A stretch of DNA of 64,000 nucleotides from Candidatus Omnitrophota bacterium (GTDB taxonomy: Bacteria > Omnitrophota > Gorgyraeia > Zapsychrales > Zapsychraceae), in NCBI GenBank assembly GCA_021108075.1, contig JAIORP010000150.1:3396-67395 (forward strand), given 5' to 3'. Under the pieces are notes generated by a model, which saw only the letters and a program-made list of their open reading frames with translations, was not told the DNA's origin and did not search any database. The translations under genes and the position numbers were made by a program. Positions 22,528 to 38,365 of the stretch are shown here, one piece after another; position 1 is the first letter of the stretch; each line of letters opens with the position of its first letter.

Positions 22528-23474
22528 TCCATGTCGTTATAAAATTTACATGCTAACGGTTCTGTTAGCATTCTAATTTGTTTAATTTCATTCAAATTAA
22601 GTAATTTTTTCCATCTTTTTATGTTTTCTTGACTATTTCTTTTTAAAACATGAGGACGATTATTTACTGGATCAGACGGATTGTCAATATTTGTAAATCT
22701 TTTTATAATTATCTCGATTTTTTTTGTAAAAACTAAATTCAATTTATCATAAAGATACTGAAATTTTTCTACTGGAAAATTAGAAATATCTTCATGACGA
22801 ATACCAATCATATTTGGATTCCGGTCTAAATACGCAAATAAAACTGAGTAAATACAATTCCATAACAAAGCGCCTTCTTCAATAATTGATAATTTATTAA
22901 AATCAATATTTAAATCAATACGCTCGCCTAAAAAATCGTCCATCAACTCTTTTTGTTTAATAAATTCTTGAAAATCAAATTTATAATTTAATCTCTTTAT
23001 GCTTCCGATAAAAGCTACAGGATGACGAATTATAATAACCGTGTCCATATTTAATTTTTTGTGCATCCATTCAGCAGAAAAACAAGCTATGGGATCTTTT
23101 ATCAATAATCTTGTAACCCAAGGTTTATATTTCAAAAGCCTGTATTTTCTTATTTTTTTGTCACCAAATATATTCCTTGCTATTGTTTTCAACATAAGCT
23201 CTTGTTTGTTTTTAGAGCTTAACTTCCATGGTTCTTTATATTTTGCCTTACCATTCAAAACATTTTTTAAAATATAATGGTATTTTTTTTCAAGCAATCC
23301 ACCATTTTTGATATAAGGATTCCATACATCCACACCCTCAACCCCCAAAACTTTATTGAAAGGTTCGAAAATATAACCAACATTAGGCGATAATGCTAAC
23401 ATTTTTCCAACAAAAGTAGTTCCACTTCTATGAGAACCTGTTACTAAAATCGTATTTTTCTTTTTATTTTGCAT
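22521..23474 (-). CDS. Sulfotransferase-family protein (second paralog)
   Basis: N-terminal ILVTGSHRSGTTFV motif. Confidence 0.6.
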   Translation of the reverse strand: MQNKKKNTILVTGSHRSGTTFVGKMLALSPNVGYIFEPFNKVLGVEGVDVWNPYIKNGGLLEKKYHYILKNVLNGKAKYKEPWKLSSKNKQELMLKTIARNIFGDKKIRKYRLLKYKPWVTRLLIKDPIACFSAEWMHKKLNMDTVIIIRHPVAFIGSIKRLNYKFDFQEFIKQKELMDDFLGERIDLNIDFNKLSIIEEGALLWNCIYSVLFAYLDRNPNMIGIRHEDISNFPVEKFQYLYDKLNLVFTKKIEIIIKRFTNIDNPSDPVNNRPHVLKRNSQENIKRWKKLLNLNEIKQIRMLTEPLACKFYNDMDW

Positions 23475-23517
23475 ATCCTGTCACAATTTATAAAAAAATA
23501 AAAATAATAGCACTCTT

Positions 23518-23958
23518 TTACCTTGCTAAAAACCATTCGTTCACTAAAACATCTTTATTATAATCAAGTTGATTATTAGTCTTCGTATTCACAACTCTCG
23601 CCCCTACCTCCTCTACGATCGCGTGCCCAGCAGCAGTGTCCCACTCCATCGTAGGAGCAAATCTTGGAGAAGCATCAGCTTTGCCTTCGGCTACAAGGCA
23701 TAATTTTAGCGAACTTCCGGCTGATAGCACTTCTACTTTGCCGTGGATTTTCTTTTGCTCTTCAATATATTCTTCTGTTTCTTTTGACATATGTGAACGA
23801 CTGCCTATGATTGTAAATGATTCTCTTTTAATATCTAATGGCAATCTTGAAGCTTTTTTGAGTAGATACCCACGGGCGTGCCCGTGGCACTTAATTAATT
23901 TTTGTGCGAGCTTACGCTCGTCGCCCTCTGGGCGAAGGTTGCATTCACCCACGGGCAT
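23518..23958 (-). pseudogene. CysQ-like 3'(2'),5'-bisphosphate nucleotidase remnant with only the C-terminal half. Its 5' end is replaced by a palindromic insertion.
   Basis: C-terminal inositol-monophosphatase-family motifs (LKLCLVAEGKAD, WDTAAG) are present. The N-terminal metal-binding half (DPIDGT) is absent. The first 30 codons are read from the palindromic element at 23869..23966. Confidence 0.5.
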
Positions 23959-23966
23959 GCCCGTGG
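23869..23966. repeat. Small palindromic insertion element: two near-identical 19-bp palindromes flanking a hairpin-rich core
   Basis: CCCACGGGCGTGCCCGTGG at 23869-23887 and CCCACGGGCATGCCCGTGG at 23948-23966. Internal hairpins GCGAGCTTACGCTCG and CGCCCTCTGGGCG. Confidence 0.5.
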
Positions 23967-24050
23967 ATCTCTGCTAGCTTTTAGATTGCATTGAATTTAT
24001 TAGTAATAAATGCGAATATATTGCTATTGATGAATGAGAAGCTAAAAGAC

Positions 24051-25070
24051 TCAATCAATATGCCCCATCACCACACACATCCCCCACGCCAACCCGAAGG
24101 ATATCATCGGCGCGATGATCCATACGGTAAAGATCTTCAGGACCGCGGATTTTTGCATGATTTCGTTAAATCCGTATTTATACACGCCCAGTCCCAGTAT
24201 CGCGCCCACGTTCAATTGCGCCAGGGCGGTCGGGATGCCTTTATAAAGCGACGCCAGTATTAATAAACTCCCGGTCACGCTCGAGATGGCCAGCGCGCCG
24301 ATCGGGCCGAACTCGACGATCTGTTTGCCGGTCGTCTCCAGCACCCTTGCCCCGAAGATCGAACTGCCTAAAGCGAAACACGGGGCGATGATAAACGTGG
24401 CCAGTATCATACAAATAACATACAAATGTGAACTTTCAGTGACGCTGAATTGATTAACCAGCAAACCATGCACAGGGCCGGCCGCGTTGGCCACATTGTT
24501 GGCGCCGATCGCGAAGGCCACGAAACAGGACGAGGCGATCACGCTGAAGCGCAGCACCGGATGCAAAGCCAATTCCTTAAAATTAACCAGATTCCTGGCC
24601 TTCAGCGGCTTATAAATAAACTTTCCCAGCAGAAGCGTCAGGCAAAACGAAATCACCGGCAGAATAAACCAGCTGGGGATGATCAAAAAAACCAGTTTTT
24701 CCATTTGAATGCTGCCGTGAAAAGCGGCGACCGCTACCAGGGCGAACACGGTCGACTGGCTGGTCGACTGCGGCACTTTTAACAGATTGGCAAAAAGAAT
24801 GGACAAAGAGATCGAGAACAGAATGATCGTGGTGATCTTTAAGGTCATATAGCTTTCCGGCAGGACGCCTTTGCCGATGGTCGCGGTCACATCCTTGCCG
24901 GCCATGATCGCACCCAATAAGACAAAAAACCCGAACAGACCCGGGATCAAATCCTTGCGGATGATATTGGCCCCGTAGGACGATGAGAACGCGGCTGACG
25001 TCCCGCTCCCGCCCATATTGATGGCCAGAAACATCGCCGCCAGCAGTGGTAATAGGATGATGGAAAACAT
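24051..25070 (-). CDS. PiT-family inorganic anion permease (phosphate/sulfate; CysP-like candidate)
   Basis: Duplicated PiT signature NMGGSGTSAAFSSSYGA near the N-terminus and FAIGANNVANAAGPV in the second half. Polytopic. Confidence 0.65.
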   Translation of the reverse strand: MFSIILLPLLAAMFLAINMGGSGTSAAFSSSYGANIIRKDLIPGLFGFFVLLGAIMAGKDVTATIGKGVLPESYMTLKITTIILFSISLSILFANLLKVPQSTSQSTVFALVAVAAFHGSIQMEKLVFLIIPSWFILPVISFCLTLLLGKFIYKPLKARNLVNFKELALHPVLRFSVIASSCFVAFAIGANNVANAAGPVHGLLVNQFSVTESSHLYVICMILATFIIAPCFALGSSIFGARVLETTGKQIVEFGPIGALAISSVTGSLLILASLYKGIPTALAQLNVGAILGLGVYKYGFNEIMQKSAVLKIFTVWIIAPMISFGLAWGMCVVMGHID

Positions 25071-25476
25071 AGTTTAAGTTATAAAAAAGTTAAAAGTAAA
25101 AAGAATTAAAATTCGGTTAAACACACTGAATTCCTGTCATACCCATTCGATCAAATAATGACCGGACGGGTACACAAAGTCAAACCTCAAAAAGCAAAGC
25201 GTGACTGACAGATGAATGATCTCTCCAACGCGCGCTTTAAACGACGGACCTGACATGCTCCCGCGACACAACCGGAATGATCACCTCCGACCCGCTCCCC
25301 AACGTTACCAAGCATAAAGCCTTTATTCCCATACACTAAGAACTCAGAGCATAAAATATATTTATATAGTAATATTATAGATATATATTAATAAATAATA
25401 GGTATTATAATAATAACAACAAATGTATCATACCTGATTGATTTGTCAAGGATTAATGCGGGGAAAGCAGGGCTGA

Positions 25477-25530
25477 AAAGTAGGGACGGATGGTACTTTT
25501 TTAAAAAAAGTACCATCCGTCCCTACTTTT
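25477..25530. repeat. REP-like palindrome family B copy: a perfect 25-bp-stem hairpin flanked by A/T runs, a bidirectional terminator candidate
   Basis: AAAAGTAGGGACGGATGGTACTTTTTTT/AAAAAAAGTACCATCCGTCCCTACTTTT. Confidence 0.55.
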
Positions 25531-25669
25531 ACTTGTAAACTTTCTGAACCTTACCGTCCCGCCAGACGTAAAGCGGGCGACCGGCTTTTTGATGTTCCGC
25601 GACAACGCGTTTAACCGCCTCCTTCATGGCTGCTTCGGCTTTATCTAAAATCGTCATTCGTTTGCGCAT
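25529..25669 (-). CDS. Candidate 47-aa small protein downstream of the zeta-toxin-like gene (possible cognate partner)
   Basis: Reverse-strand ATG at 25669 gives MRKRMTILDKAEAAMKEAVKRVVAEHQKAGRPLYVWRDGKVQKVYK. It overlaps the toxin gene end by 16 nt. It is below the ORF-track size cut-off. Confidence 0.25.
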   Translation of the reverse strand: MRKRMTILDKAEAAMKEAVKRVVAEHQKAGRPLYVWRDGKVQKVYK

Positions 25670-26256
25670 AAGTTAATCCCCACGTTTTTTGTGATCGCCA
25701 CAAATAATGGCTGATTCAATATTTCCATATGTGCGTTTTGTTGCCTGGCAATGATTCGGGGCGTTGTTTCAGCATTATCAAATAAAATCCATCTATCGGC
25801 CAATAAACGATATTCTTTGAAGAAATTCGCTATACTTCGCCTGTAACGCCGCTTCACATCGTTTACCGGCACATGATGTCCGCCCTGCGCCACACGGTCC
25901 TTAACCCGCGAAATAGCAAGTGCGGAACCCGGTATCCATAAAAAAAACATGTTTAACCGGTAATCTTTTTCTTTTAACATCTTGAAATATTTCAGATACG
26001 TTACTCCTGACATCGTTGTTTCAAAACCAAAATCAATACCTTCATTTGAATATTCTTTAATCTGCTCTAAAACAAGTTTCCCGGATTTAATCGCGACTTG
26101 CCCGGGAGAGAAGGGGGATAAACCCGCGGCTATGAGATCAGCATTTATAAATCTAACGCATTTAGCGTATTCAGGTAAAAACGTTTTCGCGAAAGTGGTC
26201 TTACCCGATCCATTGGGCCCGGCGATGATATAGACATTTTTCTTCTTCATTGTCAT
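25654..26256 (-). CDS. Zeta-toxin-family P-loop kinase (AAA-like ATPase)
   Basis: Walker A IIAGPNGSGKTTFAKTF. About 200 aa with a zeta-toxin-like layout. Confidence 0.6.
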   Translation of the reverse strand: MTMKKKNVYIIAGPNGSGKTTFAKTFLPEYAKCVRFINADLIAAGLSPFSPGQVAIKSGKLVLEQIKEYSNEGIDFGFETTMSGVTYLKYFKMLKEKDYRLNMFFLWIPGSALAISRVKDRVAQGGHHVPVNDVKRRYRRSIANFFKEYRLLADRWILFDNAETTPRIIARQQNAHMEILNQPLFVAITKNVGINLCANE

Positions 26257-26309
26257 TGATTATATCATTTGTTCCGGATAAAACAAGACAGGACGACAAA
26301 AAAGGGATA

Positions 26310-26366
26310 AAAAAGTGAGGACGGTTGGTACTTTTTAAAAAAGTACCAACCGTCCCTACTTTTTCC
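26310..26366. repeat. REP-like palindrome family B copy between the zeta-toxin and AbiE genes
   Basis: AAAAAGTGAGGACGGTTGGTACTTTTT/AAAAAAGTACCAACCGTCCCTACTTTTT. Confidence 0.55.
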
Positions 26367-26376
26367 TCTCCTAATT

Positions 26377-27081
26377 TTAATGCCCTTTGTTTATCAAACC
26401 TTCCTTAAATAATTTCAAATAAAACAAAATTTCATCCTTCATCTTTTCCCTCATCGAATCCTTGGAAGGTTCCGTTAAAAGCTCCCCTAACCCTTGCAAA
26501 ATGTAAGTATTATTAACCTGATTGACTCTGTGAACGCATCGATCAATATAATCTTTTGTTGCCATCCCTGTTCTCTTTTCTAACAAATTCAGATTGCAAT
26601 CCCATCTGTTCTTAATAAAAAAAATAATATCGTATAAATCTCTATTTGCCAGTGATTTCCGGTCTAACAGGGCGGCCATTTTATGCGCGAACATATCTTC
26701 TTGTTTCATGACCAAAACGGGGATGCCGAGATAGTCTTTGACTTCGTAGCTGTCTTCGAACATTCTGGTAGAAATCTCAATTTTTAGATTCCGGGTTTCA
26801 CGCTCATACGACAAAAGAAAAAAGAGTGTGTTTTGTTTCTGACTGGCTTCCTTCAACTCCCCATGGGCTGAAACGATGTTCTTGATCTTTTCAAAAACAA
26901 AAGTCTTCTTATTTGAATCAAGCAAATTGAAATCCAAATCGACGGAAAACCGGGTTAGTTGATAAAAAAAATAAACGGCTGTCCCACCCTTGAATCCCAA
27001 AAGTGAGGATATTTCTATATCCGAATAGATATCTTTCAAAATTTGAATTAAAATAACTCTATGTTTATTAATATTTAACAT
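26377..27081 (-). CDS. AbiEii/AbiGii-family nucleotidyltransferase toxin (DUF1814), pair 1
   Basis: N-terminal GGTAVYFFYQLTRFSVDLDF block characteristic of AbiEii. It overlaps the upstream AbiEi-like gene by 7 bp. Confidence 0.65.
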   Translation of the reverse strand: MLNINKHRVILIQILKDIYSDIEISSLLGFKGGTAVYFFYQLTRFSVDLDFNLLDSNKKTFVFEKIKNIVSAHGELKEASQKQNTLFFLLSYERETRNLKIEISTRMFEDSYEVKDYLGIPVLVMKQEDMFAHKMAALLDRKSLANRDLYDIIFFIKNRWDCNLNLLEKRTGMATKDYIDRCVHRVNQVNNTYILQGLGELLTEPSKDSMREKMKDEILFYLKLFKEGLINKGH

Positions 27082-27653
27082 AAATTCAAAAGCGCGCTCA
27101 CTTTCTTATTTAACGTATGGCTCTGATAAACGGGTAATAACATTTTAACGTCTTGAATCTTTAATGACCCCGGGTTATCAAAATGATAATTCTTATAAAG
27201 ATACAAAGTATCTAAGAACGCTCTTTCCTTTGTTGCCATGGGGACATGATCAGAAATGATGATCCCCCTATTGTTGTAAAGCGCTTCATTCTTAATTTTC
27301 CGCATAACGATACAGTGACGGCAAATTTCTATCGTTCTACTGATATAGCTAACCGCGTATATACACGTGTCATGTTGAAAAATAATCCCTTCCCGTTGTA
27401 GCACCGTTTCCAGACTGATATAGGCAGGCGAATAAATTTTCGCGGCTAATTCAAGCGCGTTATAATCTGGTTTCGCGTAAACACCCTTACGCAAAGCCCG
27501 CAGTTTCCCGGTTTTGACATAATAATGAATTTTTGATTTTAAGGCATCGGCATTGGTTTCATTCATTATTAACGCGATATCCTTAAAAGAAAATACAGTT
27601 TTTGAATTTTTATAAATCTCGAAAATAAAATCTTTTTTCATTATATGATCCAC
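27075..27653 (-). CDS. AbiEi-family antitoxin/transcriptional regulator, pair 1
   Basis: N-terminal winged-HTH region with the LRKGVY motif. Positioned 5' of AbiEii. Confidence 0.6.
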   Translation of the reverse strand: MDHIMKKDFIFEIYKNSKTVFSFKDIALIMNETNADALKSKIHYYVKTGKLRALRKGVYAKPDYNALELAAKIYSPAYISLETVLQREGIIFQHDTCIYAVSYISRTIEICRHCIVMRKIKNEALYNNRGIIISDHVPMATKERAFLDTLYLYKNYHFDNPGSLKIQDVKMLLPVYQSHTLNKKVSALLNLC

Positions 27654-27706
27654 AGGTAATAATTATTCTTACCTATAGATTACCATATTTATTAAAAGTG
27701 TCAAAT

Positions 27707-27744
27707 AAAAAAGTACCAACCGTCCCTACTTTTCCCTACTTTTC
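27707..27744. repeat. REP-like palindrome family B half-copy with a duplicated CCCTACTTTT
   Basis: AAAAAAGTACCAACCGTCCCTACTTTTCCCTACTTTTC between the two AbiE pairs. No partner arm was found. Confidence 0.4.
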
Positions 27745-28560
27745 TGTTGGCCACGATTGAAAATATGTCACAACCAACTGTTTGATCGCTAATTGTTCGA
27801 AAACATTGAGTTCATGCTTGTCCTCAATAAACCGTTCAACATCCTTTCTCACAAAATCAAAATCTTGCCGCGCCACAACGTCCAACAGATGGTCTTTGAA
27901 GTTCTGCCGGTCAATCGGTAAAGACGTCCCTTGAGTTTGAACAATGGCATTATTAAGCAATTCAAAATTGGGCTTAATTTTTTTGGTTAAATACCAGACA
28001 AAATCATACCAGTCCCGCCCTTTGGTATATGTTCTAAAAAAACAAGCATGCAACTTCCCCGCGAAAAGCGAAGGCAAATCATAGTGAACAACATTAAACA
28101 TGAACTGTTTGTTTAAAATTGTTGTTAACGTTTCCCAACCTTGTGGAGGATTTGTGTCCGCCTCCCATTTAATGGAAATATTTTGAGAAACCAACGGAGA
28201 CAGACCCAACTCCTTAAGCAAACCCGGAAATTTCAACATCATCGAATCCACATTATTCGTTGATTTCAACTTTGTTTGACACTCCAGTCCATTCAATCTG
28301 AATTCTTTGACAATTTGCTCAGAGATGTCTTCAAAGGCATATCCACCCTGACCGGTCAATGAAAAATCAAGGTCCTCTGAAAACCGCCTCAAATTATACA
28401 GCAGCCGCAAAGCTGTTCCGCCCAGGAACGCGACTTGATGAAACATTTTCTTTTGACTCATAATTCGTAAACAAAGCATCTGCAAAAACTCTCTGGTCAC
28501 ATTCATTTTATCGCTGCTAGACATACGTTCGGTGAATTGCTGTTTGATCACATCAATCAT
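27736..28560 (-). CDS. AbiEii/AbiGii-family nucleotidyltransferase toxin, pair 2
   Basis: AFLGGTALRLLYNLRRFSEDLDF block. It overlaps the upstream gene by 4 bp. Confidence 0.65.
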   Translation of the reverse strand: MIDVIKQQFTERMSSSDKMNVTREFLQMLCLRIMSQKKMFHQVAFLGGTALRLLYNLRRFSEDLDFSLTGQGGYAFEDISEQIVKEFRLNGLECQTKLKSTNNVDSMMLKFPGLLKELGLSPLVSQNISIKWEADTNPPQGWETLTTILNKQFMFNVVHYDLPSLFAGKLHACFFRTYTKGRDWYDFVWYLTKKIKPNFELLNNAIVQTQGTSLPIDRQNFKDHLLDVVARQDFDFVRKDVERFIEDKHELNVFEQLAIKQLVVTYFQSWPTEK

Positions 28561-29192
28561 GATTCCCCCTCATTGATCATTAAGCAAACGTTATGAACCA
28601 CTTTCATCAGTTTCTTACTATGAAAAATTCTCCCGAACATCATCATTTTTTCTTTGCTTAACTCATCCAGGTTTTGCAAACGATAAGAACGTTCCAGCTG
28701 AGGGCGCGCGTCTTTTTGAATCTCGCCTGAACGCAAATATAAAAAATCAACAAGCGCTTTTTCAGGTTCCGCCATCAAAAAACCCGCTTCAAAAGGCCCC
28801 ATTTTTATAAATCCTCGAAAGGCCTCAGGCTTGATACGCTGATAAACAAATGTTCCAAGATCATTTTGAATTTTCATTGTTTTCCGGGTCGTAATTGACG
28901 TGATGTCTTTCGTTTCTTCCGGAATCAATCCATAAAAACTTAAAGCGTATTCCAGACTAACATATGAAGGTTCAAACAAATAATTAGCGATATAAGCAAC
29001 ATCAGGAGACACCTTTCTATCCCGCTCATTTAAAAGATAGACCCCTCTTTTCAAACGAATGATTAAATCGTCCTTTACCCACCGGTTAAGTTGATTGCGG
29101 TTGTTCTGGAGTTCATTCTTCCCAGAGTCAATATACTTGCTAAAAATAAGCGGATATTTCTGATAGTTTCTCTTAAAATCACTAAATTTCAT
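28557..29192 (-). CDS. AbiEi-family antitoxin, pair 2
   Basis: RLKRGVY motif and a domain layout like 27075..27653. Confidence 0.6.
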   Translation of the reverse strand: MKFSDFKRNYQKYPLIFSKYIDSGKNELQNNRNQLNRWVKDDLIIRLKRGVYLLNERDRKVSPDVAYIANYLFEPSYVSLEYALSFYGLIPEETKDITSITTRKTMKIQNDLGTFVYQRIKPEAFRGFIKMGPFEAGFLMAEPEKALVDFLYLRSGEIQKDARPQLERSYRLQNLDELSKEKMMMFGRIFHSKKLMKVVHNVCLMINEGES

Positions 29193-29368
29193 CCCGGCGT
29201 TCTCCGTTTCTTTAAATAATCATATTTGATTACTTACGGAAACAGTATAACATTATTATAAAAATTAATCAATATCAAGAAAATTCGTCCCGCATCAATT
29301 TTTGTTAGCGGAACTCATGACTTTTTATTCCCACATCCGTAGGATTATTTGTTATAATTATCTCTGTT

Positions 29369-30241
29369 ATGAATAGAGACCTGACTTTTGAATCTATCCT
29401 TAAACGTGATAATAACTGGACACTCTTTAAAGAGCTTTACAAAAATCGACTTTCTAAAAATGTCATCCACGAAGTTGAGAAAATGCTTAATTGCTGTAGC
29501 AAAGACTGCGGCTTCGCCACTTTCATTTGCCCCCATTGCGGCCAAACTAAAACCTTTCCTTTCAGCTGTAAAAGCAAGCTCTGTTCTCGTTGCGGAAAAA
29601 AACATACCGACATTTGGGCACATACACTCTCTGAGAAACTACTCAACTGTGATCACCGACACATCATCCTGACTATCTCTGATAAACTCTGGAATTTCTT
29701 CATTAATCGTCCCGATAGACAGAAACTCCTTTTGGACTCTGCCGCTAAAATCATTAATGAAATCTTCTCACTCAAACAAAAACTAACCCTCGGCATAATT
29801 CTTGTTCTCCACCCTTTTGGCGATGATCTAAAATCTAACTTTCATGTCCATGCCTTAGTCTCCTGCGGTGGTCTTAACGCTAAACGTAGCCAATTCATTG
29901 ATGTTAATTTTATCCCTTACGATAAACTCAGGAATAAGTGGCAATATCTTATCCTGACCGCCCTTCGTGATCTCTACGCACATGACGAACATTCTCTCAA
30001 CCCTACCATCAATTGGTGTTTCAAATATCTCAAAAATGGCTTCTGCGTCTTTGCTGACTCCATCGTCAAAGGCTCAAAAAAACATGTCCTTCGTTACATC
30101 GCTCGATATACTCGGCATCCTCCTATCTCTACTCGGCGCATCACCAATTACGACGGCTCCTATGTCACCCAACGGAAAATCTTCAGTCCTGCATCATTGC
30201 AAAACTTCCTTATGCCGCCTTTTACCGGCCTGATACATTGA
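29369..30241 (+). mobile_element. IS91-family (HUH, Y2) transposase gene, probably C-terminally truncated
   Basis: N-terminal zinc-binding domain with CxxC pairs (CPHCGQ, CSRCGKKH), the HUH-like HVHALVSCGG block and the YxxxY region LRYIARYTRHPPIS. 290 aa is shorter than the typical 380-400 aa. Confidence 0.65.
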
Positions 30242-30283
30242 ATAAATTCTTAATCCTTTAAACCCCCGAGCCACGACCTACAA

Positions 30284-30868
30284 TTACCGATTTTCCATCG
30301 CTTTTTTATCAATCTCGCTTTTAAACATGTTGTAATGGCGCTTGATACGTTCAACATAATCCCGATCTTTAATCAAAACATCTTTTACAAGCTCAAGAAT
30401 TTCCGGCGCATGATGGGACTGCGGACTGCCAAGATTAAGGGAAGGCCCTTTAATCTCGGCAACCATATGAGGGTCATCATCTTTATACCACTTTCGATAA
30501 AAATCTGTCGACTCCCATCCATAACACACGACCGCCTCTACATTGTGTCGCGGCGCAGATGTCACATAGAAAAATACCCGCCTGCAATCACAATTGCGTT
30601 CACGGCAATACATTTCGTGAAAAACATATATTCCCTCTGGCAAACTAGAATGTTCGCCATCCATGATTGTGATATTGCGGGTTTCTTTCTCGGCAATTTC
30701 AGGAAAACGGGCACCGAACAATTCATAACCCCAGTCGTCACCTGTCGAATATTCATCCGCCCCGGCATTACTCGATCTCCGCCCTTCTTCAGGCAAACAA
30801 CATTTCTTGTACTTCTTCCCGCTGCCACAATGGCAGGGATCATTTCTGCCAATATTTCCCATCCTCAT
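30284..30868 (-). CDS. SEC-C motif protein, Cys-rich, function unknown
   Basis: N-terminal SEC-C metal-binding motif NDPCHCGSGKKYKKCC plus further Cys pairs (CRERNCDC). Confidence 0.45.
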   Translation of the reverse strand: MRMGNIGRNDPCHCGSGKKYKKCCLPEEGRRSSNAGADEYSTGDDWGYELFGARFPEIAEKETRNITIMDGEHSSLPEGIYVFHEMYCRERNCDCRRVFFYVTSAPRHNVEAVVCYGWESTDFYRKWYKDDDPHMVAEIKGPSLNLGSPQSHHAPEILELVKDVLIKDRDYVERIKRHYNMFKSEIDKKAMENR

Positions 30869-30891
30869 CCTCCGAAAATTCCGCGAATCAA

Positions 30892-31326
30892 TTATTGTTG
30901 TCTTAATTTACTGTTCCAGTATTCATTGTAGGCTTCATAACCCTTCTTGGTAGTCAGGAATTTCATATGTTGTTCAGCATTCAGCTTGTAGGCTGACATA
31001 CTTTTTACTCCCATCCTTCTCGCCTTTTGCATTCTATGATTGCCATCGATCAGATTATATCGCCCCGGTGATATCTCTGCCATTATCACAGGCCGCGAGA
31101 CATCAACGTTATCTACATGAGACTCATCAAGAGAAGAAAAATCCTTGAAGAAATCCTCTACCGCAACCGTCTCAAGTGTAATATCAGCAGGATTTTTCTG
31201 AATATATTCAATCATCTTTGTAATATTAAACTCGAAAATGCCATTTGGAAAAAGCTCATCTCCATTATCAACCGGGCAAGGGGTAAAATTTTTATCAATA
31301 CTGAATTTATTTGCCATCTTATCCAA
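30892..31326 (-). CDS. ParB/sulfiredoxin-superfamily (DGQHR-like) nuclease-domain protein
   Basis: The IDGNHR motif matches the DGQHR/ParB-N catalytic signature. 144 aa. Confidence 0.4.
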   Translation of the reverse strand: MDKMANKFSIDKNFTPCPVDNGDELFPNGIFEFNITKMIEYIQKNPADITLETVAVEDFFKDFSSLDESHVDNVDVSRPVIMAEISPGRYNLIDGNHRMQKARRMGVKSMSAYKLNAEQHMKFLTTKKGYEAYNEYWNSKLRQQ

Positions 31327-31395
31327 AAAACATTATGCTGTTGATTGTGCCACAGCTTGTGGCACTTTTAGTCAATCTCTTTCCAAAATTGCCGC

Positions 31396-31635
31396 TCATT
31401 CCAAATCAGGAATGTCTTCACGAGAAAGCAAGAGCCGGATTGACCGTGCCTTTCCTGGCGTTTGCTCGATGAATCCGATTTTGATTAAAGACTGTATCAT
31501 CCTCTGCACAGCACCCCATTCCATTTTGAAATATCGCTCCATATCAACGCGTGCAGGAGGAACTCCATGAATCTTCTCATAATAATAAATAAACGCAAGA
31601 TACTGCCCTTGCTTTTGCGTGAAACATTTTCTCAT
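31396..31635 (-). CDS. Small hypothetical protein (possible winged-helix)
   Basis: 79 aa. Third gene of a contiguous minus-strand operon. GFIEQTPGKARSIRL resembles a wing/recognition helix. Confidence 0.3.
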   Translation of the reverse strand: MRKCFTQKQGQYLAFIYYYEKIHGVPPARVDMERYFKMEWGAVQRMIQSLIKIGFIEQTPGKARSIRLLLSREDIPDLE

Positions 31636-31648
31636 TATTTACAGCCCC

Positions 31649-31894
31649 TTAATTTCCATAAACCTCAGATTCTTCATCTGTTTGTATATCTATGTATTCC
31701 CACATTTCATTCTGATGAAGCCACACAGGATCAGCATTATTACGGACAAATTCATCAACAGGTATGCCATCAATCGTCTCCAGACGTTTAACTCGTTTTT
31801 GTTTCCCATTAATGAAAATAGTCATGTATTTCTTTTGCCGTTCCTTTTTTATTTGCTTCTCCTCAGTCATCAACTTTTGTTTAAGATTTCCCAT
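31649..31894 (-). CDS. Small hypothetical protein
   Basis: 81 aa, tightly spaced within the operon. Confidence 0.25.
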   Translation of the reverse strand: MGNLKQKLMTEEKQIKKERQKKYMTIFINGKQKRVKRLETIDGIPVDEFVRNNADPVWLHQNEMWEYIDIQTDEESEVYGN

Positions 31895-31897
31895 TAT

Positions 31898-32173
31898 TTA
31901 TTCCTTAATCTTTTCCGACTTGCCATACCTTTTATCCATATAATCCGTCATTTCCTGAATCACTGCCTGACCGTCTATCTGGTCAGAATTCGGCTCATAA
32001 GAAAAACACAAAAAAACATCCTCATCCTGATCATTCCTGTTTAGATTACAAAGAATTTCCTGTTTAGGATCAACATCCTTTTTACAGGTCGCACACAAGC
32101 TGGGCTTCGGCACTATGCCCGGATTAAATGGCGTGCCATCATCATTAAAATACCCATGCATTTCTTCACTCAT
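31898..32173 (-). CDS. Small hypothetical protein
   Basis: 91 aa. Its start overlaps the stop of the helicase gene by 4 bp. Confidence 0.3.
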   Translation of the reverse strand: MSEEMHGYFNDDGTPFNPGIVPKPSLCATCKKDVDPKQEILCNLNRNDQDEDVFLCFSYEPNSDQIDGQAVIQEMTDYMDKRYGKSEKIKE

Positions 32174-34260
32174 TCTTTTCCTCCAATGGTTTCATTGACG
32201 GAACAACCCATCGCCTTATATGTCTTTAACCGCCTTTGATACATGCTGGCCAAAACCGGGACTTTATGATCGACGTAATCATAAATTCGAACCTCACTTT
32301 TTCCATGATACTCCCGATGTAACCGGCCAGAATATTGGACAATCTTTCCTTTGAAAGAAATTGGCATTGTTAGAAACAAAGTATCCAAACGAGAATCATC
32401 AAATCCTTCTCCAATATAAGCCCCCGTTGCTAATAAAGCCTTTCGATGACCATTGGAGTCATCTTTAAACTCCTCCAATATTTCTTTTCTTTTTTTGGCC
32501 TTCAGACCGCCGTGGAAGATAGCCAAATGATCAATATGATTCTTAAGAGCTTCCGCTAGAAATTCAAGATGATTTTTTCGTTCCGTGAGAATAATTGGAA
32601 ATCGCCCATCTTCGATCGCCTTAAGAATATCTGCTATGATCATTTGATTCCTCTGGCTATTCTCAACTAACTTCGGCCAGACTTCATGAATCTTAGAGTC
32701 CTCAGTCCACTTACAGGTAAATTCAGTACTGCGTGACACAACTAAAAATTCGGAAATATGCTGATTAACGTCCTTCTGCCTAATTCTGGCAACAACCGGA
32801 CCGCATTGCATGTGAATAATGGGTTGGTGACCATCACGTCTATAAGGTGTTGCTGTTAATCCAAGCACATATTTTGACTTTGATTGCATCATAACTCGTT
32901 CAAAGGAAACTGCCCCAATGTGATGACATTCATCAACAATAATAAAACCATATTCTGCAATCCGATCATCAACAACGCCCTTGCGTTCCATACTTTGGAT
33001 CATCGCAATATCAATAACGCCAAAAGACTTGTCTTTCCCCGATCCGATTTGCCCTATCTCTTTAACATCAATTCCCAAAAAAGCGGCTATTTGTAATCTC
33101 CATTGCTCCATCAACGGTTTTCTGTGAACAAGGACAAGAACATTAGTTTTCCGTTTCGCTATCATATGAATAGCAAGGACCGTTTTCCCAACGCCAGGTG
33201 GAGCTACTAAAATACCAACATCCTTCTTATTCAATTTTCTTGCGGCTTTTTTCTGCTCATCCGTTAGAGTGCCCACAAAATTAAATTTTTTCTTCTTCCC
33301 AAAAAATTTCTTATCATCGACATCCACGTCAATACCATATTCTTCTAAGATAGAATAAACATCATCCAGACACCCTCGTGGTAAAGCTAAATAATCATCA
33401 ACTATTTCAGAACAGCATATAATCCTTGGTGTCGCATGTGTGGAAAACCGCATACTCTGACGCCGGTAAAATTCCGGGTTATGAAACGCAGCCAAACGTT
33501 TTAGTTGATTTAATAAAACAGCTGGCACATCGTTGGTATTGATATAAATACAATTGGCAATAACCAAATTCAATGAATCCGGAAGATCAGATATTTTCGC
33601 TTTGTATTGTGTTTTACTTGAGGGAAGCCTCATCCAAGGGGAATCTTTCTCATCTTGAGGGCTATTTCTAATACCTTCCATTTGGCTCTGTTCAGATGAA
33701 CCTTTGGTGATTATTTCAATTTCACGATACGACATTTTTCTTATTGATGCCAGAAACTGCCATTGATTCTCGCAAGGATTACCTTTATCATCAATAAACA
33801 CACTATTGTCACATCTTCTGGCCTGCCTTTGCAACGGCAGGGCAATCAGATTGCCAAACCCACCTTTCGGCAATGTGTCCTGATTCGGAAATAGACGATC
33901 ATAGCTTTTCATATCAAGTTGATAATAATTAGACATTGTCTTTGTAAGTAGCATACTTCCGAGCTTTCTTGCCATAGAAGCAGGGATTTCATCATTAAAA
34001 AAGATCCAGGCATGAGCTCCATTGCCAGACTGCGACCTTTCAATAGCAACCGGAACATTCTGAGCATCACATGTGTTTTTAAAGGCCATAACATCATTCA
34101 TCCATTCTTCTTTATCAAAGTCAGCAGCAAGGAAAAAACAATGTTCATTTGTCAACATCGGATAGACGCCAATAACACATTGTCCTTCCAGATGATTAAT
34201 CATAACTTCTTCACTTACGGGGACAAATTCGCGGCTGGGGAACAACATGAAAAGAATCAT
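32170..34260 (-). CDS. AEP-type primase-polymerase domain fused to an SF2 DEAD/DEAH-like helicase
   Basis: N-terminal AEP motif I (FLAADFDKEE) and motif III (SGNGAHAWIFF). The helicase part has Walker A VAPPGVGKT, the DEcH box IIVDECHHIG, motif III GLTATPYRRDG and motif VI QYSGRLHR. Confidence 0.6.
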   Translation of the reverse strand: MILFMLFPSREFVPVSEEVMINHLEGQCVIGVYPMLTNEHCFFLAADFDKEEWMNDVMAFKNTCDAQNVPVAIERSQSGNGAHAWIFFNDEIPASMARKLGSMLLTKTMSNYYQLDMKSYDRLFPNQDTLPKGGFGNLIALPLQRQARRCDNSVFIDDKGNPCENQWQFLASIRKMSYREIEIITKGSSEQSQMEGIRNSPQDEKDSPWMRLPSSKTQYKAKISDLPDSLNLVIANCIYINTNDVPAVLLNQLKRLAAFHNPEFYRRQSMRFSTHATPRIICCSEIVDDYLALPRGCLDDVYSILEEYGIDVDVDDKKFFGKKKKFNFVGTLTDEQKKAARKLNKKDVGILVAPPGVGKTVLAIHMIAKRKTNVLVLVHRKPLMEQWRLQIAAFLGIDVKEIGQIGSGKDKSFGVIDIAMIQSMERKGVVDDRIAEYGFIIVDECHHIGAVSFERVMMQSKSKYVLGLTATPYRRDGHQPIIHMQCGPVVARIRQKDVNQHISEFLVVSRSTEFTCKWTEDSKIHEVWPKLVENSQRNQMIIADILKAIEDGRFPIILTERKNHLEFLAEALKNHIDHLAIFHGGLKAKKRKEILEEFKDDSNGHRKALLATGAYIGEGFDDSRLDTLFLTMPISFKGKIVQYSGRLHREYHGKSEVRIYDYVDHKVPVLASMYQRRLKTYKAMGCSVNETIGGKE

Positions 34261-34373
34261 CAGTGGGCGAGTTATTTAATTCAAATAATAATTTTTCTTT
34301 GAGTTCACTAAGAATTCCTATTTGTGATTCAACATTCTTTAGTTTCTCTAAAACTTTTTTTCGTGACTGCGAC

Positions 34374-35067
34374 TTATGCATCGATTAAAATTTCCCAATG
34401 TCCACCCTTATCGGGTCCCACACGTTTTATCACTTCCTTTTTCCTTAAACTTTCAATATGTTTTTGAACGGCTGAAGGGTTAATTTTAAGTTTCTCTGAT
34501 AACTCTTTCCTTGATATATCAAGCTTTTGCTGAATGAACCTAACAACCTCACTTTGACGCTCCGTTAACTCTGACCACCTTTTCTGACCACCTTCTGACC
34601 ACCTTCTGACCACCTTTTTCACCCCCCTTTTCTACCCCCCTGGCTTTTAACCCCATTCTCTCCTCATAACTCTGCTTCTGAAGATCAGGACGGACAAACG
34701 TCACGGTGAACCAGTTCTCGTCGGCTTCAATCTTCGAGGCTGGCAGACGGTAATCCTTCATAGACTGCTTAATACGCAGGATACCGGAGCCCGCCTTTTC
34801 AACAAGATCCATTCTCTGTAATAGGCCAAAAAGCAGAACATTGCGAGGCATACTTTTTTTACCCAAATCGGACATCCTCATTCCAGACACCAGACCGCCA
34901 GGGCTGACAAACTCAACTCGGTCGGAATAAATATACACCTGAATATTTCCTGTCAGAAAATAATTACGGTGCCCCATCGCATTCAAAAGAGCCTCACGAA
35001 GAGCATCTTCAGGTAACTCTAAAACCTCTTCTCTCGGACCGCCTTTGATGATGTATTCCGTATTCAA
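34374..35067 (-). pseudogene. RecG-C-terminal-like HATPase_c_4 + winged-HTH regulator. It is frameshifted inside an 11-bp tandem repeat and truncated at the 5' end by the IS3 element.
   Basis: ORF 34549..35067 holds the HATPase_c_4-like core. ORF 34374..34622 holds the C-terminal wHTH. The two frames meet in the repeat tract (CTGACCACCTT)x4 at 34562-34610, which encodes (K)VVRRWSE in both frames. The expected N-terminal AlbA_2-like domain is absent; the IS3 element ends 40 bp upstream. Confidence 0.5.
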
Positions 35068-35106
35068 TTTGGACTTAATACAATACTTCCCTTGTCAAGA
35101 CCAAAG

Positions 35107-36196
35107 TTAAGGCAATTTAAGGTGGGGGCTTTTTGGGGGCGAAAATTTAAGCCCCGAGTAAACTTCCCACGGTGTTTGATATTCCAGAGACTGATGTAAA
35201 CGATCGGTGTTGTAAAAATTAAAAAAATCTTTCAATCCGTGTTTCACGTCAGTTATTGTACGATATTCATGAACATAAATGTTATCATATTTCACCGTTC
35301 GCCACAGCCGCTCAATAAAAATATTGTCAAAAACTCGTCCACGGCCATCCATACTGATTCGGATATTGTTCGATAACAATTTTTGAGTGAATTCGTTTGA
35401 CGTAAACTGAACGCCCTGATCCGAATTAAATATGCCCGGACGCCCGTAATCAAAAGCTTCTTCAACACATTCCACGCAAAAATCAGCTTCCAGCGTATTG
35501 CTCAGACGCCATGACAGAACATAACGGCTGTACCAGTCCATAACAGCCACCAGATAACAAAATCCTTTCGCAAGCTGAATGTACGTGATATCAGTGCACC
35601 AGACCTGATTCGCCCGAACAATGTCCAATCCCTTTAACAAATATGGATATATCCGATGCTCTGGATGTCTCTTGCTTAACTTTGGCTTCGGATAGATCGC
35701 CAAAAGATTCATCGTGCGCATCAATCGGCGAACAAGCTTCTCACCGACTTTGTATCCAAGTCGACGTAAATTCTGCATCATCTTAAACACCCCGCAGGCT
35801 TCCTTCATGAATCGCAGATCAATCTCTTTGCGTAATTGATCCTCAGACTCAATGTTTTTCTGGCGATGTTGATAATACAAATTCGAACGGTTAAATCCTA
35901 ATAATTCACATTGCCGTCGGATACTAATATCCGGGTTATCCTTCTCAATGAACAGGTATCGCTGATCCCGGCTTATAATCCGAGATTTTTTTTAACCAGG
36001 CATTCTCAACCTGCATTCGCCCGATCTCTTTGTACAAATTGTCTATTTTCCGTTCCGCATCCGGCTCACGCTCATTTTTTCGGATGAAAATATTGGAAAT
36101 ATTTTCTTTCAACTGCTTTTTCCATTTGGTAATCATATTGCTGTGGACTTTATATTCAGAACTGATCTCTGCAATCCATCTCGCGGCTCGATACAT
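35107..36196 (-). mobile_element. IS3-family insertion sequence (orfA/orfB with an A-run frameshift site)
   Basis: OrfB 35107..35880 has an rve DDE integrase core (WCTDITYI..., DQG..., E in RLWRTVKYD). OrfA 35945..36196 has an HTH and leucine zipper. The A8 slippery run at 35985-35992 on the minus strand lies between them. The OrfA N-terminus looks about 20 aa short, so the element may be slightly degenerate. Confidence 0.8.
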
Positions 36197-37519: not shown

Positions 37520-38365
37520 ATGAAAAAATTGCTGATTACAGCTATTATTCTGACCTTTGGCATCGTACCATCAGCACACGCTTTTTCTTTAGGCGGGTAC
37601 ACAGGCTCAGTTACGTTTGACTTTATAAACTACGATGTAGGTACTACTTACAATGCAAATACAAACATCGTTAACGGAGCTGACGGTCAGGGTGACAGTT
37701 ACGGTATTATAAAGAATTTTACAATTATTGATCCTAACACAGCGCAACCATTGTGGCAATCATCCGCTAATGAATCGATTGAAGGTGTGTTTTATGGTAT
37801 CGATGACAACAACGTGAGCATCAACCCTGATTATAGTGGAACAATTGATTCAATTGGTGGTTTCTTAGATCTATATCTATCGACTTCTAATTTGAATCCT
37901 GTTGGCGGTACTGCGCCTGCCGTTCCATTAGCCGACTTGAATAATCCATATGCCGCGGGTACAGATCCATGGAATGCCAGTGACGGAACGCTTTTCTTAA
38001 GATTAGCATTCGTTCCCGGCGCTTCAATCGTTGATCCAACATCAACATATCATCAAACTATTGATTCTATGGCGAATCCTGTTCGTGGTGAAGGTAGTGG
38101 TTATTTAATGGTTGTTGGTGGTCAATATGCTTCAATGTTTGATTCAAACCAATTTGATAGCTTTTCTTCTGGTGCGGATTTCTACTTCTCAAATGATTTT
38201 GACGCGAGAGGATTAACACCGGCACAAATTGCAGCAGGTTGGTTAGTTTTTAGTGATGGTAAAGCATTAGGTTATGCTGTTCCAGAACCAGCTACTATGG
38301 CTCTTTTGGGTAGTGGTTTATTCGGTTTAGTTGGTGCTGCCATTAGAAAGAAAAAATTAGCTTAA
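37520..38365 (+). CDS. PEP-CTERM sorting-domain protein (secreted exosortase substrate)
   Basis: Signal peptide. A Gly/Asn/Ser/Thr-rich body. The C-terminal sequence VPEPATMALLGSGLFGLVGAAIRKKKLA is a canonical PEP-CTERM. A strong RBS AAAGGAGGG precedes the gene. Confidence 0.85.
   Translation: MKKLLITAIILTFGIVPSAHAFSLGGYTGSVTFDFINYDVGTTYNANTNIVNGADGQGDSYGIIKNFTIIDPNTAQPLWQSSANESIEGVFYGIDDNNVSINPDYSGTIDSIGGFLDLYLSTSNLNPVGGTAPAVPLADLNNPYAAGTDPWNASDGTLFLRLAFVPGASIVDPTSTYHQTIDSMANPVRGEGSGYLMVVGGQYASMFDSNQFDSFSSGADFYFSNDFDARGLTPAQIAAGWLVFSDGKALGYAVPEPATMALLGSGLFGLVGAAIRKKKLA

Follow-up and report, generated by a model that had tools for sequence, protein, structure and literature searches.

A six-gene primase-helicase cluster in an Omnitrophota genome is probably a mosaic of separately mobile modules

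Six tightly spaced minus-strand ORFs, headed by a primase-helicase gene, lie within a 64,000-nucleotide stretch of a Candidatus Omnitrophota contig (hereafter the window). We consider this cluster to be probably a mosaic of at least three unrelated and independently mobile modules, assembled between IS3 and IS91 remnants in a variable island of TA/defence type. Its largest ORF is the downstream part of an approximately 800-aa gene with an internal deletion and a frameshift, and its last two genes form a separately transferred block of approximately 1 kb. The features of the locus, in window coordinates, are:

29369–30241, plus strand: truncated IS91-family (Y2) transposase gene, bounding the cluster on the strand opposite to the six ORFs
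30284–30868, minus strand: ORF 6, SEC-C protein, 194 aa
30892–31326, minus strand: ORF 5, ParB/Srx fold, 144 aa, probable ATG start at 31317
31347–31365, no strand assigned: hairpin with an 8-bp stem, between the 79-aa and ParB-like genes
31396–31635, minus strand: ORF 4, LexA-type winged helix, 79 aa
31649–31894, minus strand: ORF 3, orphan, 81 aa
31898–32173, minus strand: ORF 2, Cys-containing, 91 aa
32170–34260, minus strand: ORF 1, primase-helicase, 696 aa
34211–34381, minus strand: orphaned primase-helicase 5′ end, 56-aa ORF (tblastn and DNA alignment)
34225–34250, minus strand: deletion junction in the primase-helicase gene (DNA alignment against locus L006)
34374–35079, minus strand: remnant of an AlbA_2/HATPase_c_4/wHTH gene (Pfam and comparison with locus L001)
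35107–36196, minus strand: IS3-family element, with orfB (rve) at 35107–35880 and an orfA remnant at 35945–36196

Locus layout and island context

Read from the 696-aa ORF towards the SEC-C gene, the first two ORFs overlap by 4 nt, the 91-aa gene starting across the helicase stop, and gaps of 3, 13, 69 and 23 nt follow. The tight spacing and the overlap suggest that the six genes are co-transcribed. All six ORFs of the original prediction are present; the single transcription unit that it had assigned to them is a reading of this close spacing, and promoter and terminator scans of the cluster gave no signal above chance level. The hairpin occupies the sole sizeable intergenic gap, just upstream of a module boundary.

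Both predicted IS flanks were found. The IS91 fragment matches Zn_Tnp_IS91 (1.2e-20) and Y2_Tnp (1.1e-17, model positions 1–133 of 183), and the IS3 orfB matches Pfam rve (2.5e-22), rve_3 and HTH_21. A related locus, L003, holds an IS3 element with HTH_Tnp_1 and rve, and its sequence and that of the window part at 36166, within the element. Two AbiEi/AbiEii pairs and a zeta toxin complete the mobile-element and defence hot spot that had been proposed for the window, in which no integrase, tRNA, att site or flanking direct repeats, and no cas genes or CRISPR array, were found.

Upstream of the cluster lies the AlbA_2/HATPase_c_4/wHTH remnant (HATPase_c_4, 8e-23; HTH_24, 6e-8), which lost its N-terminal ~239 aa at IS3 and carries a frameshift in an 11-nt tandem repeat (34570–34616). 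It is 86% identical to residues 240–406 of a 465-aa gene in L001 that overlaps the primase-helicase relative P0002 by 8 nt. In L006 and L009 a homologue stands upstream of the primase-helicase, in L008 and L050 one lies nearby, and among the closest primase-helicase relatives the gene is conserved as the upstream neighbour. The remnant is absent from the original prediction.

The damaged primase-helicase gene

The 696-aa ORF joins a truncated AEP primase-polymerase of the CAPP_A/AEP-TOTE type (Pfam AEP-TOTE, E = 4e-72) to an XPB/Rad25-like SF2 helicase (ResIII, DEAD and Helicase_C), and keeps the DxD, sGxGxHxW, Walker A, DEcH and motif VI signatures. It also matches PADLOC PrimPol (Cas-associated; 8e-69) and NCBIfam PrimPol_Msp (2e-20), with NF045503 on the helicase half (NCBIfam, 8e-20), and in the PDB XPB (6p4f, 1e-17) and CAPP (7nqd, 2e-9). 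Pfam thereby upholds the AEP and SF2 helicase calls made from the letters, as it does the SEC-C call; the fused protein has both predicted domains, but its gene is not intact. The relatives P0002, P0003 and P0004 (88, 85 and 82% identity) are 799–812 aa long, and 115 of the 120 best homologues measure 789–1074 aa.

The missing 5′ end is the 56-aa ORF, whose first ~42 codons correspond to the N-terminal coiled coil of intact homologues and which aligns by tblastn with residues 1–57 of P0002, as well as with P0003 and P0004. Residues 1–57 and 125–808 of P0002 fall in different frames of the window (tblastn): relative to L006, ~194 nt are absent from the DNA alignment, a length that is not a multiple of 3 and so changes the frame, and ~67 residues (~58–124 of P0002) are gone. 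The AEP-TOTE model is accordingly covered at positions 1–230 in P0002 and P0003 but only 53–228 in the window ORF, which scores 243 bits against 327 in intact relatives. The lost segment includes the near-invariant L75, F80, G82, R83, D85, W91, G97, G100 and Y101, together with the near-invariant C105, C114, C121 and C124 of a Cys4 segment. Contigs from three or more samples carry the same deleted allele, which excludes an assembly error. No stop codon interrupts the 696-aa ORF, and omega on its branch (~0.06–0.08) equals that of intact relatives, so the deletion is either of recent date or has left a protein on which selection continues to act. The AEP part of the window copy is most likely inactive; its helicase part may still be produced.

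The closest described architecture is the CAPP-Helicase of CAPP_A type, published along with non-CRISPR homologues that sit typically in MGEs and TEs and among which AEP plus helicase is the commonest architecture there (Zabrady et al. 2021, PMC8211822). The window ORF shares its same-clade AEP catalytic domain with a helicase domain after it, but it stands in a window free of cas genes and CRISPR arrays, scores 72.8 against an NCBIfam equivalog cut-off of 200 and lacks the N-terminal domain segment. Its AEP domain is likewise a strong Pfam match to PF22548 AEP-TOTE, named for the TPR, OB, TBP, Effector conflict systems (Aravind, Iyer & Burroughs 2022, as cited in bioRxiv 10.1101/2025.09.15.676423); however, no TPR-OB or TBP genes were found in the window, in L003 over the annotated ±10 kb or among the recurrent neighbours at 80 primase-helicase loci. 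XPB/Rad25 and XPBII SF2 helicases are the closest solved relatives of the C-terminal half, but the match is domain-level only, far under the equivalog cut-off, and the window helicase is fused to an AEP and has neither a Bax1-type nuclease partner nor a TFIIH context. Classical MGE primase-helicases (pRN1 ORF904, P4 alpha, D5-like) are mobile-DNA-associated single polypeptides that combine an AEP or Toprim primase with an SF3 helicase. The window fusion resembles them as a primase plus helicase tied to mobile DNA but carries a monomeric-type SF2 (XPB-like) helicase instead of a hexameric SF3/DnaB one, and no full-length fusion of its type was found in 50,697 phage records or IMG/VR.

Distribution of the component genes

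The SF2 helicase fusion, originally thought unusual, is a widespread, already-described family and not a rare one, in print as the CAPP-Helicase type (PMC8211822). A protein search gave at least 8000 matches to the AEP::XPB-like SF2 fusion; species-representative genomes contain at least 590 fusion loci, and the full-length fusion is present in 98 plasmid records. The seven plasmids examined are all conjugative, and on them the fusion travels as cargo, a lone gene surrounded by TA modules, T4SS genes and transposons, in no case found beside a typed replicon or rep genes. Nor are homologues consistently placed beside integrase genes: recombinases lie within 4 kb in just 8 of 80 genomic loci, where the recurrent neighbours are AAA_14/DUF4143 (12 loci), AbiEii/AbiEi, AlbA_2/HATPase_c_4 and Fic. 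Pfam places the family in conflict systems, in line with the suggestion that the primase-helicase may be a defence gene; we found no experimental characterisation of this Pfam conflict-system family in the literature.

That the six genes constitute one system, as first proposed, is contradicted by their distribution. In 91 primase-helicase contexts (a limited sample, 80 of the 590 or more loci hit, at no more than 61% identity except for the three close relatives) and 81 ParB-like contexts, searched with tblastn and profile HMMs, four of the five partners never or almost never accompany the primase-helicase: the 91-aa gene occurs in 1/91 contexts (only L006), and the 81-aa, 79-aa and ParB-like genes each in 0/91. 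Conversely, the primase-helicase appears in 0/81 ParB-like contexts, so the suggested co-occurrence of the fusion with a DGNHR protein was seen in neither set. The SEC-C core was detected in 4/91 primase-helicase contexts (L008, L030, L033 and L331), at differing positions and distances, and six independent contexts of the core comprise one with a primase-helicase, one with a ParB-like gene, one with AlbA_2 and three in which it is solo.

Alone among the neighbours, the small, Cys-containing 91-aa protein recurs with a close relative: a homologue at 76% identity directly follows P0003, the primase-helicase of L006. Its family (228 representatives at E ≤ 1e-3) has a ~60-aa domain, present either on its own or on the C-terminal side of UPF0158/DUF6933. 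The 81-aa protein has no match in Pfam, NCBIfam, PADLOC or the PDB, and its gene is absent from 170+ related loci and viral contigs. The 79-aa protein is a stand-alone LexA-type winged helix (Pfam LexA_DNA_bind, 4e-6; LexA structure 8s7g, 4e-5; phrog_3502, 1.4e-8) whose gene was not found beside homologues of the other cluster genes, co-occurrence of both these proteins being judged from the primase-helicase and ParB-like contexts, with no homologues of either retrieved. PADLOC returned no match for the 91-, 81- and 79-aa and ParB-like proteins, and for the SEC-C protein only matches at the level of the SEC-C motif.

The 144-aa protein carries an IDGNHR motif and a weak Pfam ParB_N match, and its predicted structure (AF2 pLDDT 89.5) has a ParB/Srx fold, with Noc, ParB-CDP, PadC, SbnI and sulfiredoxin as best Foldseek matches. 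The earlier DGQHR/ParB-like assignment thus holds for the fold, but among the NCBIfam models neither DGQHR nor DndB gave a match at E ≤ 0.1. Like the ParB/Srx superfamily (ParB/Noc CTP-binding N-domain, SbnI, sulfiredoxin, PadC) it combines this predicted fold with a DGNHR-type nucleotide-binding motif, but it consists of the N-domain and a short helical tail, without a DNA-binding HTH or dimerisation domain, and its gene is stand-alone, with no parA or parS context. Its ~900 homologues (57–87% identity) are each about 140 aa long, and no fixed neighbour was found in 80 loci. The 194-aa protein (AF2 pLDDT 82.8) has an N-terminal SEC-C zinc motif (Pfam E = 2.5e-9) and a ~140-aa conserved core with invariant C88, C93, C95 and H178 and a CDCRRV motif, the core giving no PDB fold or sequence match. 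The two genes form one 1049-nt block with 84% nucleotide identity to L328, another contig with different flanks, where homology runs from the start codon of the ParB-like gene to just past the SEC-C stop; in L329 the SEC-C gene alone (82% identity) stands behind a different gene.

Origin of the cluster

The probable mosaic would combine three parts. Module A would be the wreck of an AlbA_2/HATPase_c_4/wHTH gene plus an ~800-aa primase-polymerase::XPB-like helicase, intact in close relatives and joined in one sub-lineage by the 91-aa Cys protein as third gene. In the window, its first gene is cut by IS3 and frameshifted, and its second has lost ~67 codons out of frame, a deletion that strips the N-terminal strand and Cys4 segment from the AEP domain and leaves a 56-aa stub and the 696-aa ORF. 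Module B would consist of two orphans, the 81-aa and LexA-type wHTH proteins, and module C of the ParB/Srx-fold and SEC-C-core proteins, which move as their own 1-kb block. Several observations speak against a mosaic: the spacing suggests co-transcription, and co-transcribed genes can gain joint function; the 696-aa ORF is uninterrupted and its omega is as low as in intact relatives; and the SEC-C core lies near the primase-helicase in four other contexts, above random placement.

Another reading, that the cluster served a now decayed integrative element, satellite or plasmid for its replication or maintenance, we regard as unlikely; the primase-helicase would then be the replicase, accompanied by a regulator of wHTH type and a ParB-like protein for partition. 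Fusions of an AEP primase with a helicase are classical mobile-element replicases, and the IS flanks, the conjugative plasmids, the 8/80 loci with nearby recombinases and the typical MGE and TE setting of the published non-CRISPR homologues fit such a module; yet the window lacks an integrase, a tRNA, an att site and flanking direct repeats, phage and viral collections lack the full-length fusion, plasmid copies are solo cargo away from the typed replicon, the ~140-aa ParB-like protein has no HTH/dimerisation domain and stands alone elsewhere, and the helicase is not of the hexameric replicative type. Quite unlikely, too, is a real two-gene link in which the SEC-C-core protein, loosely linked to the primase-helicase family, would serve it as regulator or partner and the other genes would be hitch-hikers. 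Five independent co-occurrences, the window included, and the position of the core directly downstream of the primase-helicase in L030 and L033 are set against a position and orientation that vary (2 kb upstream, adjacent, across RecQ, across four genes), a pairing confined to 4/91 primase-helicase and 1/6 SEC-C contexts, and SEC-C genes paired also with AlbA_2, PRiA4_ORF3 and ParB-like genes.

A genuine lineage-specific anti-phage system of all six genes, in which the helicase, whether or not its AEP part is active, would act with the Cys-rich 91-aa, wHTH, ParB/Srx NTP-binding and SEC-C zinc proteins, appears very unlikely. The absence of three partners from every primase-helicase context, and of the primase-helicase from every ParB-like one, tells against it, as do the separate transfer of the ParB-like and SEC-C pair, the mostly solo SEC-C core, a central enzyme without its near-invariant segment and the nearly blank PADLOC result; operon-like spacing, retention of the 91-aa gene with the helicase in L006, the four further SEC-C contexts, the TA/defence island location and purifying selection on the 696-aa ORF count in its favour.

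By analogy with CAPP enzymes, for which priming and extension have been shown biochemically, the AEP of the intact enzyme would prime and extend DNA on a strand exposed by its XPB-like SF2 motor, which would open or track along DNA with ATP. The intact enzyme may be a single-gene accessory of islands and conjugative plasmids acting on incoming or foreign DNA, in immunity or in the establishment or repair of a mobile element. The window cluster itself is probably a mosaic accretion in a TA/defence island, and not a new system.

A truncated primase–helicase at the head of six genes

All six minus-strand ORFs named in the original prediction are present, and domain annotation recovered both the IS91-type and the IS3-type flanks; that description was largely correct but missed the truncation of the large gene. 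The features of the cluster and its flanks are as follows.

Cluster and flanking features in the window
29369–30241, strand opposite to the cluster: IS91-type Y2 transposase gene, truncated (domain annotation)
30284–30868, minus: 194-aa ORF with an N-terminal SEC-C zinc motif (SEC-C, 2.5e-9)
30892–31326, minus: 144-aa ORF, ParB-like (weak ParB_N and SbnI matches)
31396–31635, minus: 79-aa ORF, LexA-type winged helix (profile and LexA structure matches)
31649–31894, minus: 81-aa ORF (ORF call, no profile match)
31898–32173, minus: 91-aa ORF (ORF call; ~60-aa Cys domain)
32170–34260, minus: 696-aa ORF, AEP-TOTE and SF2 helicase (Pfam)
34211–34381, minus: 56-aa stub ORF, orphaned 5′ end of the primase–helicase, in a frame different from that of the 696-aa ORF
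34374–35079, minus: 3′ part of an AlbA_2/HATPase_c_4/wHTH gene (86% identity to the gene in contig L001, residues 240–406)
35107–36196: IS3-type element (domain annotation)

Counted in gene order from the 696-aa ORF, the junctions are a 4-nt overlap followed by gaps of 3, 13, 69 and 23 nt. Promoter-like and terminator-like sites do not exceed their frequency in shuffled sequence, so that spacing is what makes co-transcription of the six genes plausible. An Rfam search returned no structured RNAs at 24–37 kb of the window. An integron cassette array was ruled out because attC sites would not fit into the intergenic gaps (3–69 nt) and the cluster contains no repeated sites.

The 696-aa protein matches Pfam AEP-TOTE (PF22548, E=4e-72), followed by ResIII/DEAD/Helicase_C. 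As predicted, its AEP domain carries DxD (ADFDK) and sGxGxHxW (SGNGAHAW) motifs, and the corresponding alignment columns, D164/D166 and G196/G198/H200/W202, are invariant across homologs. The DEcH-box SF2 helicase foreseen at the same time is borne out by motifs I (APPGVGKT), II (DECHH), III (TATPYR) and VI (QYSGRLHR) and by Pfam matches to both RecA-like domains (ResIII 3e-26, Helicase_C 1.6e-8); XPB/Rad25-type structures match this part at 1e-17 in a PDB sequence search.

The closest intact relatives, P0002, P0003 and P0004 (88, 85 and 82% identity), are 799–812 aa long, and 115 of the 120 best homologs measure 789–1074 aa. By tblastn, the 56-aa stub matches the first ~40–57 residues of these three relatives, and residues 1–57 and 125–808 of P0002 fall in two different window frames. 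DNA alignment with L006, the contig encoding P0003, shows ~194 nt absent from the window, a length that is not a multiple of 3. The AEP-TOTE domain of the window ORF is incomplete, covering model positions 53–228 (243 bits) with positions 1–52 gone, against 1–230 (327 bits) in both P0002 and P0003; the lost segment holds a nearly invariant LFRGRxDVY...W...GxxGY signature and four cysteines (a Cys4 cluster). Contigs of three or more samples carry the same allele, and the deletion is therefore real rather than an assembly error. Over the remaining 690 codons the window branch has an omega of ~0.06–0.08, like that of intact relatives, so the deletion is either recent or tolerated. Since this dN/dS test for pseudogene decay detected no relaxation, the missing conserved segment is the one observation from which we infer that AEP activity has been lost in the window protein, in which the helicase may persist.

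Damage extends to the upstream gene. In L001, the contig encoding P0002, this gene is intact (465 aa) and overlaps P0002 by 8 nt; AlbA_2/HATPase_c_4 homologs also lie upstream of the primase–helicase in L006 and L009 and nearby in L008 and L050. In the window the IS3 element stands in place of its first ~239 codons, and the remnant is frameshifted inside an 11-nt tandem repeat at 34570–34616 (TCTGACCACCT, 4.1 copies) in the linker. In the AlbA_2 homolog of L008 the linker is also repetitive (EGLV) at the equivalent site, which looks slippage-prone. A 134–135-aa protein resembling sigma-70 region 2 adjoins the pair of AlbA_2 (or Fic) and primase–helicase genes in the closest relatives (L001 8080–8484; L002 584–971; L008 7993–8400); the window lacks its gene, a loss that may have come with the IS3 insertion.

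Small genes of probably separate origin

Profile searches of Pfam, NCBIfam and PADLOC returned no match for the 91-aa and 81-aa proteins, and the 79-aa protein matches a LexA-type winged helix (4e-6 by profile search, 4e-5 to a LexA structure). The 91-aa protein belongs to a ~60-aa Cys-domain family with 228 representatives (E<=1e-3), which stand alone or are fused C-terminally to UPF0158 or DUF6933.

The 144-aa protein had been described as ParB/DGQHR-like. The first half of this label stood: its AlphaFold (AF2) model (pLDDT 89.5) has a predicted ParB/Srx N-domain fold, the top 30 Foldseek matches being almost all ParB/Noc/PadC/SbnI/Srx N-domains at probabilities of 0.9–1.0, and residues D94, G95, H97 and R98 of the nucleotide-binding (D)GxHR motif are invariant in the family alignment. 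The second half did not, as an NCBIfam scan at E<=0.1 gave SbnI, parB_part and SerK matches only and none to a DGQHR-domain or DndB model. The family is ~140 aa long, with ~900 matches at 57–87% identity. Whereas the ParB of ParABS has HTH and C-terminal dimerisation domains and parA and parS nearby, the window protein consists of the N-domain only (141–144 aa, no HTH), and 80 metagenomic loci of its family show no ParA and no fixed neighbour.

The Cys-rich SEC-C protein was correctly recognized, its SEC-C motif matching at 2.5e-9. It has a conserved ~140-aa core, with invariant C88, C93, C95 and H178 and a CDCRRV motif in the alignment, in a family where the SEC-C motif is N-terminal, C-terminal or absent; its model (pLDDT 82.8) resembles nothing in the PDB, whether in fold or in sequence. 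Six independent contexts of this core comprise one with the primase–helicase, one with the ParB-like gene, one with AlbA_2 and three solo. The ParB-like and SEC-C genes form one 1049-nt block that is 84% identical to L328, a locus with different flanks, the homology running from the ParB-like start codon to a point shortly beyond the SEC-C stop. In L329 the SEC-C gene is present by itself, at 82% identity, and lies behind an AlbA_2/HATPase_c_4 gene. In viral contigs the ParB-like, 79-, 81- and 91-aa proteins had zero matches, and the SEC-C match was confined to its 20-residue motif.

SEC-C-core genes are often preceded or followed by PRiA4_ORF3-domain, SWIM or TPR+SEC-C proteins (L328 6167–8594; L008 2353–3126; L033 4439–5878; L331 8150–8998), and UPF0158, the fusion partner of the 91-aa Cys domain, also occurs in the L331 island. 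These SEC-C-core, Cys-domain and associated genes make up a loose guild of small zinc-tailed proteins.

A widespread fusion family without a fixed partner

The AEP::XPB-helicase fusion is a common and already described architecture. A protein search with the primase–helicase gave at least 8000 candidates, and both domains are present in each of the best 120; a scan in which each species was represented by one genome yielded at least 590 fusion loci in many phyla. At least 80% of the fusion protein is carried by 98 of 72,556 plasmid records. The full-length fusion was found in none of 50,697 phage records, nor in IMG/VR, where helicase-domain matches alone appeared (at most 30% identity). The CAPP_A 'CAPP-Helicase' type was defined by Zabrady et al. 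2021 (PMC8211822), and among non-CRISPR homologues the helicase fusion is the most prevalent architecture, typically in mobile elements (PMC8211822). We found no experimental characterisation of the intact family in the literature.

Homology of the AEP part to CAPP_A is favoured by its matches to the PADLOC Cas-associated PrimPol at 8e-69 and to the CAPP structure 7nqd at 2e-9; its NCBIfam equivalog score, 72.8, lies well under the cut-off of 200. CAPP genes stand in operons with cas genes or a CRISPR array, whereas no cas domains were found in L003 (a near-identical contig) or the window neighbourhood and no repeat arrays in the window, which rules out a CRISPR association of the cluster. TOTE (TPR, OB, TBP, Effector) conflict systems, as described in bioRxiv 10.1101/2025.09.15.676423, which cites Aravind, Iyer & Burroughs 2022, have an adjacent TPR-OB (cold-shock) protein and an adjacent TBP-like gene; here the scanned ORFs, and L003 within ±10 kb, gave no TPR or CSD Pfam match, the window and L003 annotations hold no TBP-like gene, and neither gene is among the recurrent neighbours of the primase–helicase at 80 loci. 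PADLOC-DB v2 gave domain-level helicase/PrimPol matches for the large protein, SEC-C-motif matches for the 194-aa protein and nothing for the other four, with no multi-gene match to the components of any one curated anti-phage system.

By tblastn and profile HMMs we searched 91 primase–helicase contexts, which sample a fraction of the family: 80 genome loci, 7 plasmids, the L331 locus and the 3 close relatives from metagenomes. The 81-aa, 79-aa and ParB-like genes occur in 0 of the 91. The 91-aa gene occurs in one, directly 3′ of P0003 (85% identical) in L006, at 76% identity, and the SEC-C-core family in four (L008, L030, L033 and L331), where it lies ~2 kb upstream, adjacent downstream or with a RecQ gene between. 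The ParB-like gene, for its part, is never beside a primase–helicase at its 80 loci, so the pairing with a DGNHR protein envisaged in the original prediction is found from neither side. Unbiased clustering of neighbours at the 80 genome loci revealed no universal partner; recurrent neighbours are AAA_14/DUF4143 (12 loci), AbiEii/AbiEi, AlbA_2/HATPase_c_4 (5), Fic (3) and recombinases (8). Small ORFs adjoining the primase–helicase form no family, phmmer clustering having linked only the 91-aa pair of the window and L006. On seven conjugative plasmids (L334–L340; alpha- and beta-proteobacterial) the primase–helicase is a solo cargo gene among TA modules, T4SS genes, large ParB-N proteins, DUF1738, DUF736, recombinase trios and TniABQ transposons; the gene may belong to a plasmid accessory region or be carried by such elements.

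The island and the standing of the cluster

The DNA neighbouring the cluster encodes a zeta toxin and two AbiEi/AbiEii pairs. A near-perfect palindrome of 55 nt (AAAAGTAGGGACGGATGGTACTTTTTT / AAAAAAGTACCATCCGTCCCTACTTTT) recurs at 25476–25530, 26310–26364 and 27706–27737, in the stretches that separate the zeta-toxin cassette and the two AbiEii/AbiEi cassettes. Its half-sites match 5 times, where shuffled sequence gives an expectation of 0; the repeat may be a bidirectional terminator used in common, or a REP/MITE-like element that marks where cassettes meet. L003 (ENA ERZ26872899 NODE_88) is 99.96% identical to the window over 22170–36166 and then diverges, inside IS3 orfA (35945–36196), into AAA_14/DUF4143 and DUF1016-SNase genes where the window has a sugar transferase, which suggests an IS3-mediated rearrangement or a strain difference. 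At 17000–23000, G+C is 26–30% (about 40–47% elsewhere) and minus-strand ORFs are densely packed; the stretch adjoins the island and probably represents a surface-polysaccharide cluster gained by horizontal transfer. Outside the finding lie a plus-strand 3010-aa ORF (51067–60099) and a 281-aa protein (37520–38365) with a C-terminal PEP-CTERM-like sorting signal (VPEPATMALLGSGLFGLVGAAIRKKK).

The cluster is best read as a mosaic, assembled from three or more modules within a variable island of TA/defence type remodelled by IS3 and IS91. These would be a decayed AlbA_2/primase–helicase/91-aa unit, an orphan pair of the 81-aa and winged-helix proteins, and the ParB/Srx plus SEC-C block, packed co-directionally. 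A true six-gene system, as the tight packing might suggest, is highly improbable, being contradicted by the co-occurrence counts and by the boundaries of the ParB-like and SEC-C block; the proposed new multi-gene system finds no support here. A looser partnership of primase–helicase and SEC-C protein could be argued from their four shared contexts, yet the pairing looks like island-level co-occurrence and we consider it quite unlikely. The original prediction had also offered the replication module of a degraded integrative element. Plasmid carriage of the family may seem to favour a decayed replicon module, but the neighbourhood holds IS transposases and no integrase, no direct repeats of note flank the cluster as att sites, the 64 kb window has no tRNA gene as a target, the context is not that of a replication initiator and the helicase belongs to a non-replicative type, all of which make such an origin unlikely.

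In the intact enzyme, an XPB-like motor driven by ATP would lay bare single strands for priming and extension by the AEP domain, by analogy with CAPP biochemistry (PMC8211822). Both immunity against incoming DNA and the establishment or repair of mobile elements fit: absence from phages and solo placement beside TA/defence genes fit the former, and presence on conjugative plasmids fits element establishment. That the fusion, alone or paired with AlbA_2, is an immune or anti-plasmid enzyme that primes synthesis on invader DNA, with the zinc proteins (SEC-C-core and 91-aa Cys) as optional partners, is a tentative proposal to which we assign a rather low probability; were it true, the window would hold a decayed example of a real defence type.

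In sum, the locus combines a damaged copy from a known and widespread family with small genes unrelated to it. For this locus alone the significance is small: one candidate 'new six-gene defence system' is removed, since genes packed tightly and co-directionally in an island need not form a functional unit and the central gene is crippled. The family-level picture is the more useful. Of the conflict-associated enzymes for which no experimental test was found, the fusion is one of the more widespread, and it sits consistently solo in TA/defence islands and on conjugative plasmids. P0002 and P0003, with their upstream AlbA_2/HATPase_c_4 gene, would be better experimental subjects than the window copy.
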